From the IMG/VR virus record IMGVR_UViG_3300042090_000199, positions 1 through 64,000 of that record: a DNA stretch of 64,000 bases. One strand, 5' to 3'. Below the pieces are notes generated by a model. The model was given only the letters and a program-made list of their open reading frames with translations. It did no database searches and was not told the DNA's origin. Position 1 is the first letter of the stretch, and every line of letters begins with the position of its first letter. Of this stretch, positions 2,930 through 20,061 are shown in pieces. The stretch is from a virus. A program made the translations under genes and the position numbers.

Positions 2930-3042
2930 AGCGCTGGTTCCGCGAGCTCCTGCTTCGGTGGGAGCTCGCGTACGGCGGAATCCTCCTGGCAATGGAGGGC
3001 ATGAAAGAAATGGACGAAGCCTGTAAGAACCAGCAGGCCTGA
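2926..3042 (+). CDS. Small hypothetical protein (MKRWFRELL...)
   Basis: ATGA overlap. Confidence 0.6.
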   Translation: MKRWFRELLLRWELAYGGILLAMEGMKEMDEACKNQQA

Positions 3043-3046
3043 CGCC

Positions 3047-3107
3047 CACGATGGTCGATCGAGTGCCCAGATTCGATCGACTGTCGCGGACGCCAAGCTG
3101 GTGTTCG
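3047..3107 (+). repeat. Early intergenic double-hairpin repeat, copy R3 (GCCCAG loop)
   Basis: CACGATGGTCGATCGAG-TGCCCAGA-TTCGATCGACTGTCGCG then CGGACGCCA/TGGTGTTCG. Confidence 0.85.
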
Positions 3108-3393: not shown

Positions 3394-3443
3394 CACGATG
3401 GCGATCGAGCTACGGCTCGATCGTCGTCGCGGACGTCAGTCCG
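3394..3443 (+). repeat. Early intergenic double-hairpin repeat, copy R4
   Basis: CACGATGGCGATCGAGC/GCTCGATCGTCGTCGCG then CGGACGTCAGTCCG. Confidence 0.85.
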
Positions 3444-3460
3444 GAAAGAAGGGAAACAAT

Positions 3461-3745
3461 GTGACTCCCAAGGAGAAGGTCGCCATAATTGAGGCGTGCT
3501 GGCTAGGAGCTCGCTCCGGTCCGCACTGCTTCATCGATGACGACGAACACTACCCGAGCTGGTTCGAGACAGTTCATCCAGACGGGATGTTCTGGTACTA
3601 CGATCAGTACCAGAGTGCGGTCCTAGAAATGGGCGGACTGCGAATTCCGCTCACGACACGCTGGATACTCTGCCCTGAGCACGAGTATCTTGCGAAAGAA
3701 GAAGTAGAAGGGAAGGCCGAAGATGGTCAAGCCCTTGGAGTGTAA
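3461..3745 (+). CDS. Hypothetical protein
   Basis: GTG start after RBS GAAGGGA. Confidence 0.7.
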   Translation: MTPKEKVAIIEACWLGARSGPHCFIDDDEHYPSWFETVHPDGMFWYYDQYQSAVLEMGGLRIPLTTRWILCPEHEYLAKEEVEGKAEDGQALGV

Positions 3746-13791: not shown

Positions 13792-14829
13792 ATGATTGGG
13801 AAGAAGAGGAAGCTGGTAGTAGGTGCGATCATCGCGGTCGTCATCGCTATCGTCGCTGCCGTCATCGGTTCCAACCGAGCAACTGCAGCGCCTATCTACG
13901 GCGATACGTCGGCCACGGTGAGTCCTTTCACCTTGACCGATCACGGACCTCACGTGAGTACGCCGACGCCTCTGACGACGCCAGTGACCGTCCTGCCTGC
14001 GAGCATCCAGTTTCAGGCGATCGGGACGCCGCCCTTCCTCGGGGCGGATACCTGGCAGGTCAGTCCGGCGACGCTGGATGGCTACGCACTCCAGATCAAC
14101 AGCGCAGGTCTCCTGACCCTGACGCCGATCAGTGGAGCGACGCAGACCATCGGGGCTGGTGCTATCGCGGTTTCGGCGACTGACGTCCTCGGCGCGACGG
14201 GGCTGGATACCGTCACTATCGGGTTCGTCGACGCCACACACTCCAGCCTGACACAGGTGTCACACAACCTGCTGAACAACATCTTCGGCCTGAACAACAA
14301 CGCCAACGGCCAGGTCGACTTCTCACTGGTACCGACGCCCGCTCCGGCCGTAACCTGGTCGGCAGGGAACCTGCCCAACGGCACGGCGATGGCATCGAAC
14401 GGTATCCTGACGGCGACGAGCTCGATCCCCGGCGCCTACAATGAGGTGCCTGTGAGGGCTACAGACAGTGGCGGGGCAACAGCCGTCGCGGTCGTGGACC
14501 TGACTATCAAGGGTGCGATCGTCGGTAACGATACGCCGAGGCTGTCGCATGGGTATGCGGTTGCGGGAATCAACAGTTCCCGTGAGAACGTGTTCTACGA
14601 GCAGGACGGGTCGCCGTCCTGGGACCACTTCACCATCGTGGGCCCCGGCGCGATCAACGGTCACCAGGGTTGGGTTCACGGCCAGCTCGGACTGAACGAA
14701 GCGGTCTACGGAGGCCTGCTGGCGGGTCACGGTTACACCGTGTTCTACCAGCCGGTGACCGGACCAGGCTCGACCACGCCGTGGCCGGGTGCACACTGGG
14801 GCTACGTCTACTTCATTAGCGGACGATAG
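13792..14829 (+). CDS. Secreted protein with putative Ig-like (He_PIG-type) domains
   Basis: Signal peptide KKRK + hydrophobic + ATA|A; WSAGNLPNG...GILTAT...GAY...VRATDSGG. Confidence 0.75.
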   Translation: MIGKKRKLVVGAIIAVVIAIVAAVIGSNRATAAPIYGDTSATVSPFTLTDHGPHVSTPTPLTTPVTVLPASIQFQAIGTPPFLGADTWQVSPATLDGYALQINSAGLLTLTPISGATQTIGAGAIAVSATDVLGATGLDTVTIGFVDATHSSLTQVSHNLLNNIFGLNNNANGQVDFSLVPTPAPAVTWSAGNLPNGTAMASNGILTATSSIPGAYNEVPVRATDSGGATAVAVVDLTIKGAIVGNDTPRLSHGYAVAGINSSRENVFYEQDGSPSWDHFTIVGPGAINGHQGWVHGQLGLNEAVYGGLLAGHGYTVFYQPVTGPGSTTPWPGAHWGYVYFISGR

Positions 14830-14839
14830 TTACCTGAAC

Positions 14840-14955
14840 GTCCTGTCCGAGCCGTACGGCGCGGGAACGCCTTACGAGGCGGCTCGGGCAGGGCCTTGAG
14901 GTAACTATGGCAGTTGCCTTGAATGTCCTGTTCAGTTCTGGGTGCTGAACAGGGC
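14840..14955 (+). repeat. Two GTCCTG...CAGGGC hairpin units (14840-14894, 14925-14955)
   Basis: Same termini and upstream AAC/AAT as the 16.5 kb array. Confidence 0.8.
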
Positions 14956-14988
14956 TTTGAGGGCATTCTACAAAGGGAGGAACAAATA

Positions 14989-15312
14989 ATGACTAACTAC
15001 TACCCGAATAAGGACCGTACTGTACGTCTAGGGCGTCCACCAGCCTATCCTTGGAAAGAGTGGACTGACGGCACAGAGCGTCTTCTGGTTGAAGGGAAAG
15101 ACTTCCGGTGCATGGCTGAAAGCTTCGCCCTTCTAGCACGACGTACTGCACGTGTTCGAGGACTCCATGTGACAGTTTCTACCATAGCCGTTCCGAAGAG
15201 TGCAAAGACTCCGCTAGAGGTCAAAGTGAACGACGAACCTCAAAACCTTCAGCCAGGTAACACCTACGTCCTGCTCAAGTTCGAGCGGGAAGAGACTGAT
15301 GATGAGTCATGA
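14989..15312 (+). CDS. Hypothetical protein (MTNYYPNK...)
   Basis: RBS GGGAGG; GRPPAYPWKEWTDG motif. Confidence 0.75.
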   Translation: MTNYYPNKDRTVRLGRPPAYPWKEWTDGTERLLVEGKDFRCMAESFALLARRTARVRGLHVTVSTIAVPKSAKTPLEVKVNDEPQNLQPGNTYVLLKFEREETDDES

Positions 15313-15731
15313 CCATCGAAGTAGACCAGGATAAGTTCCGAGGCACTTGCCAGAACTATCGACACGGCCTAAGTTCGGACTACACCTGCCGCGTAGTACG
15401 ACCTGAAAACGGTCCTCTGAAGGTGTGCAGTAATTGTACTACATGGAGTATTACGGACGTTATCTACGAGGACTTGTACAAGGTCAGGATAGCGCAGACC
15501 TACGACTGGTGGCGCAGTGAGTTTATCAGGACAGGGCATTCTTACGCCAAGGACCGAATGACTGACCTGTATGCGGAACCTGTCACTACAGTAGCTGTCA
15601 AGGAGCCTATGCAAGTTCCAGTTAAGAGGCAGCCACCATCGTATCTATCCGTCGAAGACTCTGTCAGGGTAATACTGCTCTTCATCATAATCGTAGCCTT
15701 GTTCGTCGGGGTGTTCGTCGCGGTACTCTAG
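15309..15731 (+). CDS. C-terminally anchored membrane protein
   Basis: ATGA overlap; terminal hydrophobic helix. Confidence 0.75.
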   Translation: MTIEVDQDKFRGTCQNYRHGLSSDYTCRVVRPENGPLKVCSNCTTWSITDVIYEDLYKVRIAQTYDWWRSEFIRTGHSYAKDRMTDLYAEPVTTVAVKEPMQVPVKRQPPSYLSVEDSVRVILLFIIIVALFVGVFVAVL

Positions 15732-15781
15732 TCACAAACACAGTCTGCGAAAATTCAAGAATTTTTCCCCTCAGTAGCCTC

Positions 15782-15811
15782 TTGCAAGCCTCTTGAGGCT
15801 GCAGCTATAAT
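15782..15811 (+). promoter_or_regulatory. Phage promoter TTGCAA-N18-TATAAT
   Basis: Recurring geometry; would also drive the downstream RNA array. Confidence 0.8.
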
Positions 15812-15861
15812 ATTAACATACGCAGAAATGTGAAGCAGACTAGGGACAACAGGAGCTGATC

Positions 15862-16473
15862 ATGGCAAGCAGGCGTAGAGCCGCTCAACAGCCTGTGTCG
15901 GCGGACGAGCAAGAAGGGACAAACGAGATGACCGAAACTGACTTCGACGAAACCGTCGCTGTCGACGAAAAGCCTGAGCCGACCTACGACGAGCTGAAGG
16001 CTCGCGTCGTCGAGCTCGAGGAGCAGCTGGCCGCGGCAACCAAGTCGAAGACCAAGAAGGACAAGCCGGAGAAGCGCAAGCCTGATCTTCCCGACGGCTA
16101 TATCTCCCCTGTAGCCTTCCGTCACAAGCTGGTGGAGCTCGGCCTGGCCAACGAGAGCATGAGCCCTGTGCAGGTTTACGGGCTGGTACGCAAGGCCTCG
16201 TCCAACGGCATGCCTGTCAAGCACTTCGACAAGGCCGGCAACGTGTACGACGAGATCCAGACGCACCCCGTCACCAACGAGACGCTCACGCGGCCCGGCC
16301 TCATCGAGGAAGACGCTCTCAAGTGGTGGAAGGACCGTCCGAAGCGTCAGCCTGGCCAGCCCAAGCCGAAGACCGAAGGTGAGTCTGCGGACGCCTCCGA
16401 GGACTCGGATCTCGAGGACGCCGCCGCGGCCGAAGACCTTGCGGCGGACGAGGATTTTGACGAGGCCGAGTAG
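15862..16473 (+). CDS. Acidic, probably highly expressed protein; possible distant paralogue of 7774..8385
   Basis: RBS AGGAG; strong GC3 bias. Confidence 0.85.
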   Translation: MASRRRAAQQPVSADEQEGTNEMTETDFDETVAVDEKPEPTYDELKARVVELEEQLAAATKSKTKKDKPEKRKPDLPDGYISPVAFRHKLVELGLANESMSPVQVYGLVRKASSNGMPVKHFDKAGNVYDEIQTHPVTNETLTRPGLIEEDALKWWKDRPKRQPGQPKPKTEGESADASEDSDLEDAAAAEDLAADEDFDEAE

Positions 16474-16478
16474 CAAAC

Positions 16479-16748
16479 GTCCTGTCTGAGTGTTCCTAGG
16501 AATGGCGAGGCTCCGCTCAGACAGGATCCAAACGTCCTGTTCGGACCTGGGGTTTACAGCGGGCACCGAACAGGACCCAGACACCCTGATCTAGAGTCCC
16601 TAATAGGGTTCGTCCCAGTGGTAGGTATCTAGGTCAGGGCCCGAACGTCCTGCTCGGGAAGTGGCAACGATCCGTCTAGGAGCTCCTAGGCGACGACCAC
16701 ACGCCCGAGCAGGACTCAAACGTCCAGCTAGGCGCGTCTAGGACACCA
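16479..16748 (+). ncRNA. Tandem array of five hairpin units with fixed 6-nt linkers (candidate small-RNA array)
   Basis: Stems start at 16479, 16534, 16583, 16647, 16722; linkers CCAAAC, CCAGAC, CCGAAC, TCAAAC; compensatory stem changes. Confidence 0.75.
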
Positions 16749-17480
16749 AGGTTTCGATAGCTCGACCATGGTGTGGAAAGAAGCGGAAGCAGGACGAAAA
16801 GGCGAAGGGGACAACGCAGGTGAAGCGCAGACCAGCAGGCGCACCAGTCACACGTCCTGCCGAGTTGAACCACACCTCTGGTGTCCCCTTCGTCGCGTCG
16901 GGACGACACATGTGGGTGTCAGCACCGAGTACGCGCTCGGAACGTGTTGCACTGGTTCGAATCCAGGTCCCGGCTCGAGGCTCCGTCGTTCTCCCGTTCG
17001 ACGGAGCCTGCCTAGGTCGACCATCCGCAAAGGGAGTACACACACGAGGATGCTTCGGTCAGACTCCACCTAGGCATTACGCCGGCCCGGCGGCGTGCGT
17101 CTTGCTTCACCCTCCAGTGGCAGACGCGAAGGGTTCACCCCACTCACCGGGACCCACAATCGTAGCTGGCAGGAACACTCAACCTCGAGGACTCTTGAGT
17201 AAGGTCCGAAGCCGAGAGCACGTTTGCCTTATTGGCCCGTGCGCTAATATCGAGCCAGCCACTCAATCACCGGGCTGTCAGATGCGTAGTCTGAACAGCT
17301 GGCGGCCCGGCCATAACCCTGGGAGCACCTCCTATGGGCGGTCGATCGCGACAAGGCAAGCCGGGCCTGCTCTGCTGATCCTGCCCATGCGTGGCGGTGC
17401 AGCGGGAGGTGCTCCCAGGCCGACTGAAGGCTGCTGGATGTGTAGGCTTAATCTACAGCATAGAGTACCTGACCAGTGTG
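16749..17480 (+). ncRNA. Candidate large structured ncRNA containing a tRNA-like domain (16897-16975)
   Basis: Many 7-15 bp helices, a possible pseudoknot, TTCGAAT T-loop; no convincing ORF. Confidence 0.6.
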
Positions 17481-17499
17481 ACGTAAGAGAGGAGCGGTA

Positions 17500-17883
17500 A
17501 TGCCTACAGCTGTTGACGCTCGTCTGTACGAGCAGTGCTGCAAGGTCTACGACGCCATGAACGAAGCCGCACAGACCCGTAACGCCGACGGAGTCGCTGT
17601 CTATCGAGGTTACACGACCTACCTTCTTGAGCAGTGCGGCTACTCGATCAGCATTTACACTCCGGTCATGCGTAGACTTCGATCCATGGGTTGCGTTCAG
17701 CAAAAGGTCCGCGGAGGCCGTGGTATTCCTAGCGAGTGGCTAGTCATTAAGCCTCCGACGCGTGCGGCCTTTGCTCAGGGTGGGCAGCGATGGATGGCAC
17801 AACAGGAGCGCATTTCGGATTTGGAAGCTCGTGTCGAGATTCTCGAGGCACGCCTGGAAGAAGTCCCAGAAGAAGCCGTATAA
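17500..17883 (+). CDS. Putative winged-helix protein with C-terminal coiled coil
   Basis: RBS GAGGAG; VMRRLRSMGCV..VRGGRG wing-like pattern. Confidence 0.7.
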   Translation: MPTAVDARLYEQCCKVYDAMNEAAQTRNADGVAVYRGYTTYLLEQCGYSISIYTPVMRRLRSMGCVQQKVRGGRGIPSEWLVIKPPTRAAFAQGGQRWMAQQERISDLEARVEILEARLEEVPEEAV

Positions 17884-18032
17884 ATAATTCAGTAATAGCC
17901 AGTTCCTTTTTTCACTATAGGCCAGTAATCCAAATACTAAATACGAAATAGTCGGGAGGTGTTAGCAATGCGTAACTGGCTACACGATCTGGTCGAGGCT
18001 CTTTGCGACCATCCGGAATTGGACGATGACCT

Positions 18033-18278
18033 GTGAAGTGGCAAACAATTCACCCTGCTACATGCGCACACTGCGGGACTCCTGTAACAGATGTGAGACA
18101 CGTATGCGAACAGGCAATCAAGGACTGGCTAGCTCTGAATGCTGAGACATCTGTCCTACCTAAGCCTGGAAGATTCGTGTACGAAATCTTCCGAGAGCTT
18201 CAGGCCAAACCTTATCGTACGCTAGACCCTGATCCGTCTATACGTCCACCGATGGAAGACGTGATCAGCGACCTATAG
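18033..18278 (+). CDS. Hypothetical Zn-binding protein
   Basis: CAHC...HVC. Confidence 0.65.
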   Translation: MKWQTIHPATCAHCGTPVTDVRHVCEQAIKDWLALNAETSVLPKPGRFVYEIFRELQAKPYRTLDPDPSIRPPMEDVISDL

Positions 18279-18289
18279 GAGACAATAGT

Positions 18290-18412
18290 ATGCCCTGGTA
18301 CTTCTGGGTCTTCGTAGGTCTCTGCGGAGCCTGTGTTCTAGTTCTCCTGGTGTTCGTCGTCTTCCTAGGTTACATGCTAAAGCATTCCGGCGAAGGAAGA
18401 GGTAGTCGATAG
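18290..18412 (+). CDS. Small membrane protein
   Basis: RBS AGGAG; single hydrophobic helix. Confidence 0.7.
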   Translation: MPWYFWVFVGLCGACVLVLLVFVVFLGYMLKHSGEGRGSR

Positions 18413-18415
18413 CAT

Positions 18416-18574
18416 ATGAACTGTCGAACTTGTGGGGCGGAACTAATTCCAGGCACAGTCTCCGAAGGCGGTAACTGGACTAAAGATCGTCAGCAGAGCC
18501 AAGCCTACGAGTGCACGCCCTGTAACGCTCCTCAGAATTGTAACTGTGTAAGTCTGTACGGAGTATTGTTGTGA
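18416..18574 (+). CDS. Small Zn-ribbon protein (MNCRTCG...)
   Basis: CxxC..CxxC; GTGA overlap with helicase. Confidence 0.6.
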   Translation: MNCRTCGAELIPGTVSEGGNWTKDRQQSQAYECTPCNAPQNCNCVSLYGVLL

Positions 18575-20061
18575 CTACGACACTATACCAGCAACTATAC
18601 AGGTTCCAACAAGAGCTCGTCGACAAGTTGGGAAGTCCTGATATTCCAGCCCGTCTCATTGGGGACGAAATGGGAACCGGCAAGACATATGAGGCTATAG
18701 CCATCGAAGACCGTCTACGACGCACACACACAGGCACCAAGATGCGCACCCTCATTGTTGCGCCTTGGAGCGTTCATGAAACCTGGAAACGTAAGCTCAT
18801 AGAGCTACTTGGTCTAAAGCCTGCTGATGTTGTTGTTATTGACCGTAAGAAGAGGACTACCTTTCTACGAGCTGTCCAGCTCGGCCAGGCCAAGTATTAT
18901 ATTGTGCACTACGAAGCTCTGCGCATTGCAGACATGCAGCCGTTGCAGCGCATCCATTGGTTCCATATCATTGCAGACGAGATTCATCGAATCAAGTCTC
19001 CTAAAGCATTGCAGACGAAAGCTTTTAAGCGTCTCAAGGCTCAGTTTAAGACAGGCATGTCTGGTTCGATTGCAGACGATCGCCCTCAGGACTTCTGGAG
19101 CCCTCTACACTGGGCTCGTCCTGATCTGTTTCCGAACGTCTCGACGAAGGACCCTACCAAACTATTCGTCAAGGACTGGTGCGAGACTGAAGAGTTCGAA
19201 GGCCGTTTTCTCGGTATCGACGACGATGGTAACGAACTCCATCAGATGCATAAGCGTGTCACAGGTATGCGTCAGGATCGTCTCGACGAGTTTCACGCGC
19301 TTATCGCGCCGTTCTATATGCGTCGGCTGAAAGAAGACGTTCTCGATCTGCCTGAGAAGGTTTTCAGTCCCGTTCACGTTACCTTGTACGCCGGACAGCA
19401 AAAGGTGTACGACCAGCTGAAGCGTGAGTTCATAGCTTGGATCGGCGAACACGAAGACGAAGAGCTACGAATCAACCGTATGTTCGTCTTCGCACAGCTC
19501 GTGCGTCTGCAGCAAGCTGCCCTAGCGTCCTTGATGTTCAGGGATACTGGCAAGGCTGACCGCTTCGGCAAGCCGATCAAGAAGGTTGCACTACGTGAAC
19601 CTTCAGCCAAACTAGATGCCTTTGTAGACTGGGCTTCTGACGTTAACAGTCCTGTCGTCGTGTTCAGTCAAAGCAGAGGCATGATAGACCTGACTGCAGC
19701 AAGACTTGATGCAGCCGGAGCTCGCGTAGGCGTTTACACAGGCGGAACTCCTGATAAAGTTCGTCAGCAAATCATAGACAACTTCAGCGCAGGCAAGCTA
19801 GACTTCTTTCTTGGCACGATCAAGGCTGGAGGAGAAGGCGTTGACGGTCTGCAACGAGCGTCTAGCACAATGGTGTTTTTTGATAGGGCCTGGGGACCGT
19901 TCAGGAATAAGCAAGCTGAAGATCGTCTGCATCGTGAAGGTCAGAAGAGTTCGGTCCAAATCGTTGACTTCTACGCTCCGAAAACTGTAGATGCAAAGGT
20001 TCGAGCGACAAATATCCGTAAGTGGCGAGACCTTCGCCAGATCCTAGGAGATGAGAGATAG
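18571..20061 (+). CDS. SNF2-family (SF2) helicase
   Basis: DEMGTGKT, ADEIH, MSGS, GGEGVDG, QAEDRLHREGQ. Confidence 0.92.
   Translation: MTTTLYQQLYRFQQELVDKLGSPDIPARLIGDEMGTGKTYEAIAIEDRLRRTHTGTKMRTLIVAPWSVHETWKRKLIELLGLKPADVVVIDRKKRTTFLRAVQLGQAKYYIVHYEALRIADMQPLQRIHWFHIIADEIHRIKSPKALQTKAFKRLKAQFKTGMSGSIADDRPQDFWSPLHWARPDLFPNVSTKDPTKLFVKDWCETEEFEGRFLGIDDDGNELHQMHKRVTGMRQDRLDEFHALIAPFYMRRLKEDVLDLPEKVFSPVHVTLYAGQQKVYDQLKREFIAWIGEHEDEELRINRMFVFAQLVRLQQAALASLMFRDTGKADRFGKPIKKVALREPSAKLDAFVDWASDVNSPVVVFSQSRGMIDLTAARLDAAGARVGVYTGGTPDKVRQQIIDNFSAGKLDFFLGTIKAGGEGVDGLQRASSTMVFFDRAWGPFRNKQAEDRLHREGQKSSVQIVDFYAPKTVDAKVRATNIRKWRDLRQILGDER

Follow-up and report, generated by a model that had tools for sequence, protein, structure and literature searches.

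GOLLD, a large RNA expressed by phages, has a variable 5' part, transfer RNAs (tRNAs) in its linker and a conserved 3' part, and it forms cages made only of RNA (bioRxiv 10.1101/2024.12.08.627333). Irregular, allo-tRNA-like polycistrons of the 8/4 type are found in the metatranscriptomes of forest and peat soils (Mukai et al., 2017, PMC5389517). At the level of processing, the early messenger RNA (mRNA) of phage T7 is punctuated by five RNase III signals; the enzyme needs a minimal substrate of about 11 base pairs (bp), and its single-strand cuts leave stabilising 3' hairpins (PMC3867540). Here we describe a tandem array of hairpins in a viral DNA of 64,000 nucleotides (nt), positions 1 to 64,000 of IMG/VR virus record IMGVR_UViG_3300042090_000199, called the window throughout. 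The record is 77.7 kb long, is estimated to be 83% complete and has a G+C content of about 55%. The phage is uncultivated; near-identical DNA is contained in wetland metagenomes, and a blastn search against 50,697 phage records returned no matches. We find that the hairpins are real transcribed RNA structures and one part of a larger, uncatalogued phage RNA locus that is expressed, and not a system of guides or small RNAs with CCA ends.

The array consists of four hairpins arranged head to tail after the stop codon of gene 15862-16473, within a gap between genes (16474-17499) that is structured throughout:

16479-16527, plus strand: hairpin unit 1, a 14-bp stem (GTCCTGTCTGAGTG/CGCTCAGACAGGAT) with a 21-nt loop.
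16534-16576, plus strand: hairpin unit 2, an 11-bp stem with a 21-nt loop.
16583-16640, plus strand: hairpin unit 3, a variant stem (ACCCTG.../...CAGGGC) with a 32-nt loop; of the 13 positions of the stem, one is an A.C mismatch and one a G.U pair.
16647-16715, plus strand: hairpin unit 4, a 12-bp stem with a 45-nt loop that is itself structured.

The linkers are CCAAAC, CCAGAC, CCGAAC and TCAAAC, of 6 nt each, and a 23-nt direct repeat occurs five times. When folded as RNA, positions 16470-16780 reach -147 kcal/mol (z = -6.4), and none of 100 dinucleotide shuffles was equally stable. A first-pass annotation of the window had described such tandem hairpins with these stems, loops and linkers, and their coordinates were confirmed. 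It had also set the array apart from clustered regularly interspaced short palindromic repeats (CRISPR), rightly, as the variable sequence is enclosed by the inverted repeat and the linker measures 0-8 nt across the loci compared below. Its count of five units was reduced to four: the putative fifth, GTCC..GGAC at 16722-16744, is locally weak and is not kept in relatives. The tetranucleotide CTAG and its extension CCTAGG are unusually common between 16474 and 17500 (16 TAG trinucleotides in 1026 nt), often at helix ends or in loops, as in TTCCTAGGAA at 16493-16502.

The four units are members of a dispersed family. Its motif comprises a 5' flank (R)AAC, the sequence GUCCUG and 5-10 variable paired positions, answered on the 3' side by CAGGRC and a Y. 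The family is also found singly in related phages and at three gene boundaries of this phage:

14840-14894, plus strand: solitary copy A, with an inner stem beginning GTCCTGTCCGAGCCGT, directly after the stop of gene 13792-14829.
14925-14955, plus strand: solitary copy B, GTCCTGTTCAGT/GCTGAACAGGGC, with a 7-nt loop, after the same gene.
G000:75622-75675: solitary copy C, after a gene of 385 amino acids (aa).

The solitary hairpins have an inner stem of 12-16 bp nested in an outer stem of 7-8 bp, with a 4x4 internal loop, GAAC/CUUG, between the two; together with their outer stems they lie within 14829-14965 and G000:C1:75609-75688. Copy A is identical in the relative G001, and one solitary copy shows an A-U to G-C compensation between G000 and G001. 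In copy C, the 3' strand of the outer stem includes the GGAGG that precedes the ATG of the next gene.

For 13 distinct members of the family, drawn from four genomes, a script counted pairs inward from the ends of each stem, because MAFFT, when given whole units, puts U3 and L005_U2 in the wrong place. Standard pairs occupied 154 of the 156 arm cells, with most of the covariation at stem positions 7-12; exchanging the 3' arms at random among members gave 124 pairs on average and at most 144, and none of 5000 shuffles reached 154. All ten G.U cells are found on the plus strand, and the opposite strand would have A.C mismatches in their place. The structure has therefore been selected, and at the RNA level: it belongs to the sense RNA (or to the plus strand of the DNA).

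The locus is also present in RNA. We used the contigs of four wetland metatranscriptome runs that carry the stretch at no less than 99% identity, from which neither the starts and ends nor the levels of transcripts can be read. The elements needed to follow them are these:

15782-15811, plus strand: a strong sigma-70-like promoter of the transcription unit (TTGCAA, an 18-nt spacer and TATAAT; 10 of 12 matches).
15862-16473, plus strand: the upstream gene, 203 aa, with its TAG stop at 16471-16473.
17500-17883, plus strand: the downstream gene, 127 aa, with a winged-helix lead and a coiled coil.

In two runs an RNA contig starts at 15834/15835, that is, 23-24 nt past the TTGCAA-18-TATAAT site. 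Contigs 15835-16985 and 16397-16880 bridge the end of the open reading frame (ORF), the entire array and the beginning of the large RNA described below. The stretches 14904-15809 and 17773-18800 had no RNA contigs in any of the four runs, and the genes just upstream (14989-15731) were not seen in them; the emptiness of these neighbouring stretches argues against a carry-over of DNA. RNA contigs also leave uncovered 16881-16986 (three runs), the region from 17170 onward (three runs) and the solitary hairpins, from which nothing firm follows. Contig depth was 27, 27.5 and 14.5 over the array and 2-6 over the ORF, which is a hint only, as each contig yields a single figure.

These observations bear on whether the array could act as DNA. 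At the junctions of the units the arms form palindromes, CAGGAC-N6-GTCCTG, which might serve the dimeric winged-helix protein encoded downstream as operators or iterons, at an origin or in a regulatory region; or hairpins of single-stranded DNA might have a role at an origin. The leads for the 127-aa protein resemble a replication initiator as well as a winged helix and are accompanied by the coiled coil, the direct repeat recurs five times, and replication genes follow, including a SNF2 helicase at 18571-20061. However, the spacing of the half-sites is 0, 5, 6 or 8 bp in relatives and so is not fixed, the junction palindrome is absent from the solitary copies, and the complementarity runs 5-8 bp past the hexamer and covaries there. 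With G.T pairs on one strand only and the region abundant in RNA libraries, we consider a function at the DNA level most improbable.

Relatives were found through the flanking proteins and an ORF call spanning the gap, which gave six related loci. All six share the gene order of 203-aa homologue, gap and 127-aa homologue, and they differ in what fills the gap:

Window: four family-type units before the large RNA, with linkers of 6, 6, 6 and 6 nt.
L002 / G001: two family-type units, with linkers of 5 and 6 nt.
L005: three family-type units, with linkers of 0, 8 and 6 nt.
L007: one family-type unit.
L016 and L017: no family-type unit recognised; other stem-closed modules with stems of 12-18 bp instead.
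L018, a distant relative: an inter-gene gap of about 150 nt, made up of one solitary-type clamp hairpin.

The array turns over rapidly among these loci. Stems are retained and loops are replaced wholesale between close relatives: the stem GTCCTGTTCGG, for example, occurs both in window unit 2 and in the unit that comes first in L002, with unrelated loops of 21 and 43 nt. Unit 4 has an orthologue in L002 whose apical helix shows compensatory changes. The base of the stem and the AAC 5' flank are conserved across relatives, in support of the annotation, whereas the linker (0, 5, 6 or 8 nt) and the 3' end vary. The 3' flanks are CCA, CCA, CCG and TCA in the window, TAA and CCA in L002, none, CCC and CCG in L005, CTA in L007, and CTT and TTT in the solitary copies. 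The constant 6-nt linker with a CCA-like end, which had seemed the signature of the system, is peculiar to the genome of the window; striking as they are, these linkers and ends are local accidents and not conserved features.

The same comparison speaks to the loops. They had been proposed to be guide or antisense sequences; however, identity or complementarity of the four window loops to the rest of the phage genome was no longer than for shuffled loops, and the wholesale swapping of loops between close relatives does not suggest guides. One may also ask whether the hairpins are selfish or neutral palindromic repeats, similar to repetitive extragenic palindromes and bacterial interspersed mosaic elements (REP/BIME) or to miniature inverted-repeat transposable elements, for which the array would be a site of accumulation. 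The family is indeed both dispersed and clustered, lies after stop codons and differs in copy number between close relatives. Yet copies share only the stem and not the interior, the covariation of the inner stem points to selection for pairing, the solitary copies of G000 and G001 are stable orthologues, and no target-site duplication was seen at them, which leaves this explanation very unlikely in our view.

Other searches for relatives added none. Scans of viral contigs with DNA patterns returned only the known one, a loose pattern search in G001 did no better than its control, and of two scans of genome contigs the first gave nothing and the second two chance 20-mer matches within coding genes of metagenome-assembled genomes (MAGs). 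At L013 780-1100, in a Dehalococcoidia MAG, such a chance 20-mer match is next to a TnpB/Cas12-like gene with a repeat array (GTCGTGCCCACGCGCGCGGGGAGTGAAGG) after it, and it is unrelated.

Downstream of the array the gap holds a second, larger structure:

16722-17440, plus strand: a large conserved structured RNA of about 700 nt, enclosed by the long-range stem GTCCAGC (16722-16728)/GCTGGAT (17434-17440).
17318-17419, plus strand: a 3' module with a clamp-like stem of 15-16 bp, AAC-CCUGGGAGCACCUCC / GGAGGUGCUCCCAGG-CC.

An RNAalifold consensus of four related sequences over 16716-17502 contained 183 pairs, 37 of them with double compensatory changes. For the putative fifth unit of the array a better reading is that it supplies the 5' arm of the long-range stem: this arm can pair with 17434-17440, around the RNA of about 700 nt. 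The same long-range arms occur in L002 and L005, and the matching site in L007 reads CTCCTGGTAGA/TCTACAGGAG, with a different inner sequence; given these matches, the large RNA looks like the cargo of one more clamp of the family type. The stem of the 3' module shows a G-C to A-U covariation in L007 and has homologous stems in L016 and L017.

No Rfam family accounts for this RNA. At gathering scores the whole window gave no match, nor did L005 and L007, and at E <=10 the region 16300-17600 gave chance-level matches only. The model of GOLLD (RF02032) had no match at E <=10 in the whole phage record or in 16300-17600; that of ROOL (RF03087) had none at the same threshold, and neither did the control genomes of the record search. 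In this the annotation is supported: the array is a structured RNA of the sense strand to which none of the Rfam families corresponds.

The repeated units might serve as a platform. The array could be a multi-site binding array or scaffold for an RNA-binding protein of phage or host (a sponge or an assembly platform), or a surface through which the large RNA multimerises, in the manner of the variable 5' region of GOLLD. The stem base of 6 bp and its AAC flank are repeated 4-5 times, as binding sites would be, and the plan of the locus resembles that of GOLLD, with its RNA-only cages (bioRxiv 10.1101/2024.12.08.627333). In addition, four relatives share without change a palindromic loop, CCUCGAGG (17183-17190 in the window), through which molecules could pair with one another. 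On the other hand, we identified no RNA-binding protein, the flanking proteins look DNA-binding, and the GOLLD and ROOL models gave no match even at E <=10. L007 retains a single unit and L016 and L017 have none that we recognise; the large RNA can therefore do without the array. We regard the platform as rather unlikely.

Within the large RNA, and at this locus in relatives, there is a recurrent likeness to tRNA:

16897-16974, plus strand: a tRNA-like cloverleaf with an 8-bp acceptor, a 5-bp D stem and a 4-bp T stem with the loop TTCGAAT.

This cloverleaf has the 8/4 split of acceptor and T stem and a 4-nt loop where the anticodon loop is expected, and it differs from its counterpart in L002 by compensatory changes. 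The closest Rfam model is tRNA-Sec (17 bits against a gathering score of 47), and ARAGORN called no tRNA in the window, L002, L005 or L007. A different tRNA-like element occupies the same place in L005, L007 and L016; those of L005 and L007 show G3.U70 and A73. In unit 1 of L005 a canonical T arm, GTCGG-TTCAAGT-CCGAC, adjoins the 3' strand of the clamp. By motif scan, a tRNA-like element bearing a T loop is present in four relatives with a large gap; variants resembling a T loop in L007 and L016 were recognised by eye only, and L018 has none. At the start of the L017 gap (3001-3081) there is a real tRNA with anticodon UUA, ochre-reading, which ARAGORN calls and which scores 44 bits in Rfam, the sole gathering-score match in the window and the related loci. 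At the end of the same gap (3421-3492) stands a look-alike of the tRNA-like domain of transfer-messenger RNA (tmRNA), at 21.5 bits and so below threshold, again with G3.U70 and A73. The gene upstream of the L017 gap terminates in TAA. In the RNA data of the window, contigs of three runs end at 16860-16880 and restart at 16987-16996, and adapter-bearing ends were found at 16996 and 17138; these stops and ends hint weakly that RNA ends lie on either side of the cloverleaf.

We then asked what this likeness means for the hairpins, which the first-pass annotation had suggested to be tRNA mimics. Under that proposal the units would be minihelices imitating the acceptor/T stack, processed by RNase P, RNase Z and the CCA-adding enzyme, and would act as decoys or competitors for enzymes directed at tRNA, such as host anticodon nucleases and tRNA-dependent defences. 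Stems of 11-14 bp (12-16 bp in the solitary copies) are near the 12 bp of an acceptor/T stack, and the T arm in the first unit of L005, the T-loop elements of the four large-gap relatives, the G3.U70 and A73 of L005 and L007, and the tRNA and tmRNA-domain look-alike of L017 all lie at this locus; irregular 8/4 tRNA-like polycistrons are moreover known from soil metatranscriptomes (PMC5389517). The window units themselves agree less well. Their CCA is not kept, the solitary copies ending in CUUG or UUUG, and a motif scan for the T loop (UUCRANY) found none in the four units, on which ARAGORN and Rfam are silent as well. Loops of 21-45 nt with unrelated sequences are not tRNA-like, and a gene for a CCA-adding enzyme was not found in the phage record, 83% complete as it is. 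A part of the proposal survives in that tRNA likeness recurs at the locus in relatives, but as an account of the hairpins it appears unlikely; taken together, the mechanisms offered by the annotation are upheld only in part.

The reading that we favour, tentatively and with a confidence that falls somewhat short of an even one, is that the hairpins act as stem "clamps", modules by which a giant, modular phage RNA of a GOLLD-like kind is punctuated and stabilised. The base of the stem and its flank are conserved, the loops are free, and the motif recurs at gene ends and around the large RNA, and on these grounds we read the hairpins as boundary clamp stems. In a clamp module the conserved stem, (R)AAC-GUCCUG-N5-10 ... 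N5-10-CAGGRC-Y, would enclose a freely varying loop, and the module would act through the stem and not the loop to mark the boundaries of modules and genes. The array would then be the evolutionarily labile 5' part of a polycistron of stem-closed modules about 1 kb long (16479-17440), which presumably shares its transcript and its promoter, at 15782-15811, with the 203-aa gene and runs into the RNA of about 700 nt with its cloverleaf. Clamp stems may be substrates for an endonuclease specific for double strands or hairpins, or may block exonucleases, or both, such that the structured RNA would outlive the coding part of the transcript. The behaviour of RNase III in the literature makes this reading plausible. 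The data show that structure is conserved at the RNA level, that the hairpins belong to a dispersed family, that the array turns over between relatives and that the locus is present in RNA libraries; cleavage, the responsible enzyme and stabilisation are inferred.

Several points weigh against the clamps. No cleavage site and no discrete small RNA were seen, contigs being unable to show ends, and, unlike the solitary copies and the T7 signals, the tandem units have neither a lower stem nor an internal loop. An RNase III gene was not found in the 83%-complete record, so that the enzyme would have to come from the host. The many copies and the rapid replacement of loops are also what one would expect of a selfish repeat or of an array that binds protein, and the recurrent tRNA-like elements point towards tRNA-processing enzymes rather than RNase III.

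The large RNA has one further property, which is that a reading frame stays open across it:

16820-17500, plus strand: a frame of 226 codons that stays open over the structured RNA and whose end forms TAATG with the next gene.
L002 4802-5521, L005 1549-2208, L007 2698-3147, L016 2761-3375, L017 2799-3506: the same frame in relatives.

Across the large RNA, one forward frame is free of stops in all relatives, and the other frames have 2-14 stops. Substitutions are spread evenly over the codon positions (32/44/45, 36/32/34 and 73/71/66), insertions and deletions relative to L002 preserve the frame, and under simulated random substitutions it stayed open in only 2-5% of trials. The product matches no protein family and has no predicted fold (predicted local distance difference test score, pLDDT, of 35), and in L017 the frame passes through the real tRNA. 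The frame is thus kept open without a coding signature. An invariant block, GGGGACAACGCAGGTGAAGCGC, might provide both a ribosome-binding site and a GTG start; one idea is that the frame is held open only so that ribosomes follow the polymerase.

A bolder scheme would join all these elements. The locus might stand for a new class of giant modular phage RNA, built of clamp-closed cassettes (hairpins, tRNA mimics and one real ochre-reading tRNA) that are exchanged between related phages and cut at the clamps into separate RNAs; some of these would mimic tRNA to decoy or feed host enzymes directed at tRNA, and the dummy frame would let ribosomes escort the polymerase. We regard the scheme as decidedly unlikely.

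The genes on either side were examined as possible partners of the RNA, a role that the first-pass annotation had offered them. The 203-aa protein, with 14 homologues, keeps a core at about residues 66-170 and has an acidic tail with an EAE end; substitutions in its gene fall 18/13/40 over the codon positions, with a third-position bias. Its structure bears a weak likeness to domains of the MerR/excisionase type (Z 5-5.7 by VIA-align), and Foldseek against the PDB found no match below E 0.1. The gene of the 127-aa protein is biased in the same way (8/3/30), and the protein has features like those of HTH_36, DnaD_N and RepL at atlas scores of 0.82-0.88, which are leads only. Pfam and PHROGs gave nothing useful on the neighbouring genes, and a TROVE/Ro60 gene was not found in the 83%-complete record. 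Both flanking proteins are, on these weak leads, look-alikes of winged-helix DNA-binding proteins, and they gave no sign of being partners of the RNA.

Large phage RNAs of the GOLLD/ROOL type are few and have no known function, and a further, unrelated example could reveal traits that they have in common. The present locus offers several useful ones: modules recognisable by their closing stems, tRNA look-alikes at a fixed place and presence in environmental RNA. The common clamp motif provides a concrete starting point from which its reader, be it an enzyme or another protein, could be identified, and the stop-free non-coding frame raises the question of how phages carry a long non-coding RNA within an operon.

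Among known systems, REP/BIME elements of enterobacteria are likewise imperfect palindromes after stop codons, both solitary and clustered, and they can stabilise the mRNA upstream. Their copies are near-identical and alternate in orientation, whereas here only the stem is shared, in one orientation, and the loops are unrelated. The RNase III signals of T7 are, like our hairpins, situated at gene boundaries of a phage polycistron and have stems of at least about 11 bp, and the solitary copies share with them the succession of lower stem, internal loop and upper stem; in contrast, the tandem units are single stems of 11-14 bp, and there is no likeness in sequence. With the allo-tRNA-like polycistrons the locus has in common a soil or wetland origin, the polycistronic arrangement, the 8-bp acceptor with a 4-bp T stem, tRNA-Sec as the nearest Rfam model and, in relatives, G3:U70 variants. 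It departs from them in that the window cloverleaf has a 4-nt loop in place of the 7-nt anticodon loop and is called by neither ARAGORN nor Rfam, and in that the hairpins are without tRNA arms. As for GOLLD (RF02032) and ROOL (RF03087), these too are densely paired RNAs of 0.7-1 kb expressed from phages, and the variable 5' part, tRNA or tRNA-like element and conserved 3' part, as well as the tRNA-island neighbourhood, are alike in plan only: the RNA of this locus is built of stem-closed modules with a common clamp motif and is crossed by an open frame, and neither covariance model gave a match to it at E <=10, that of ROOL giving none in its control genomes either. The locus, itself uncatalogued, can therefore be likened to the giant ornate phage RNAs, to the irregular tRNA-like polycistrons and to boundary hairpins.

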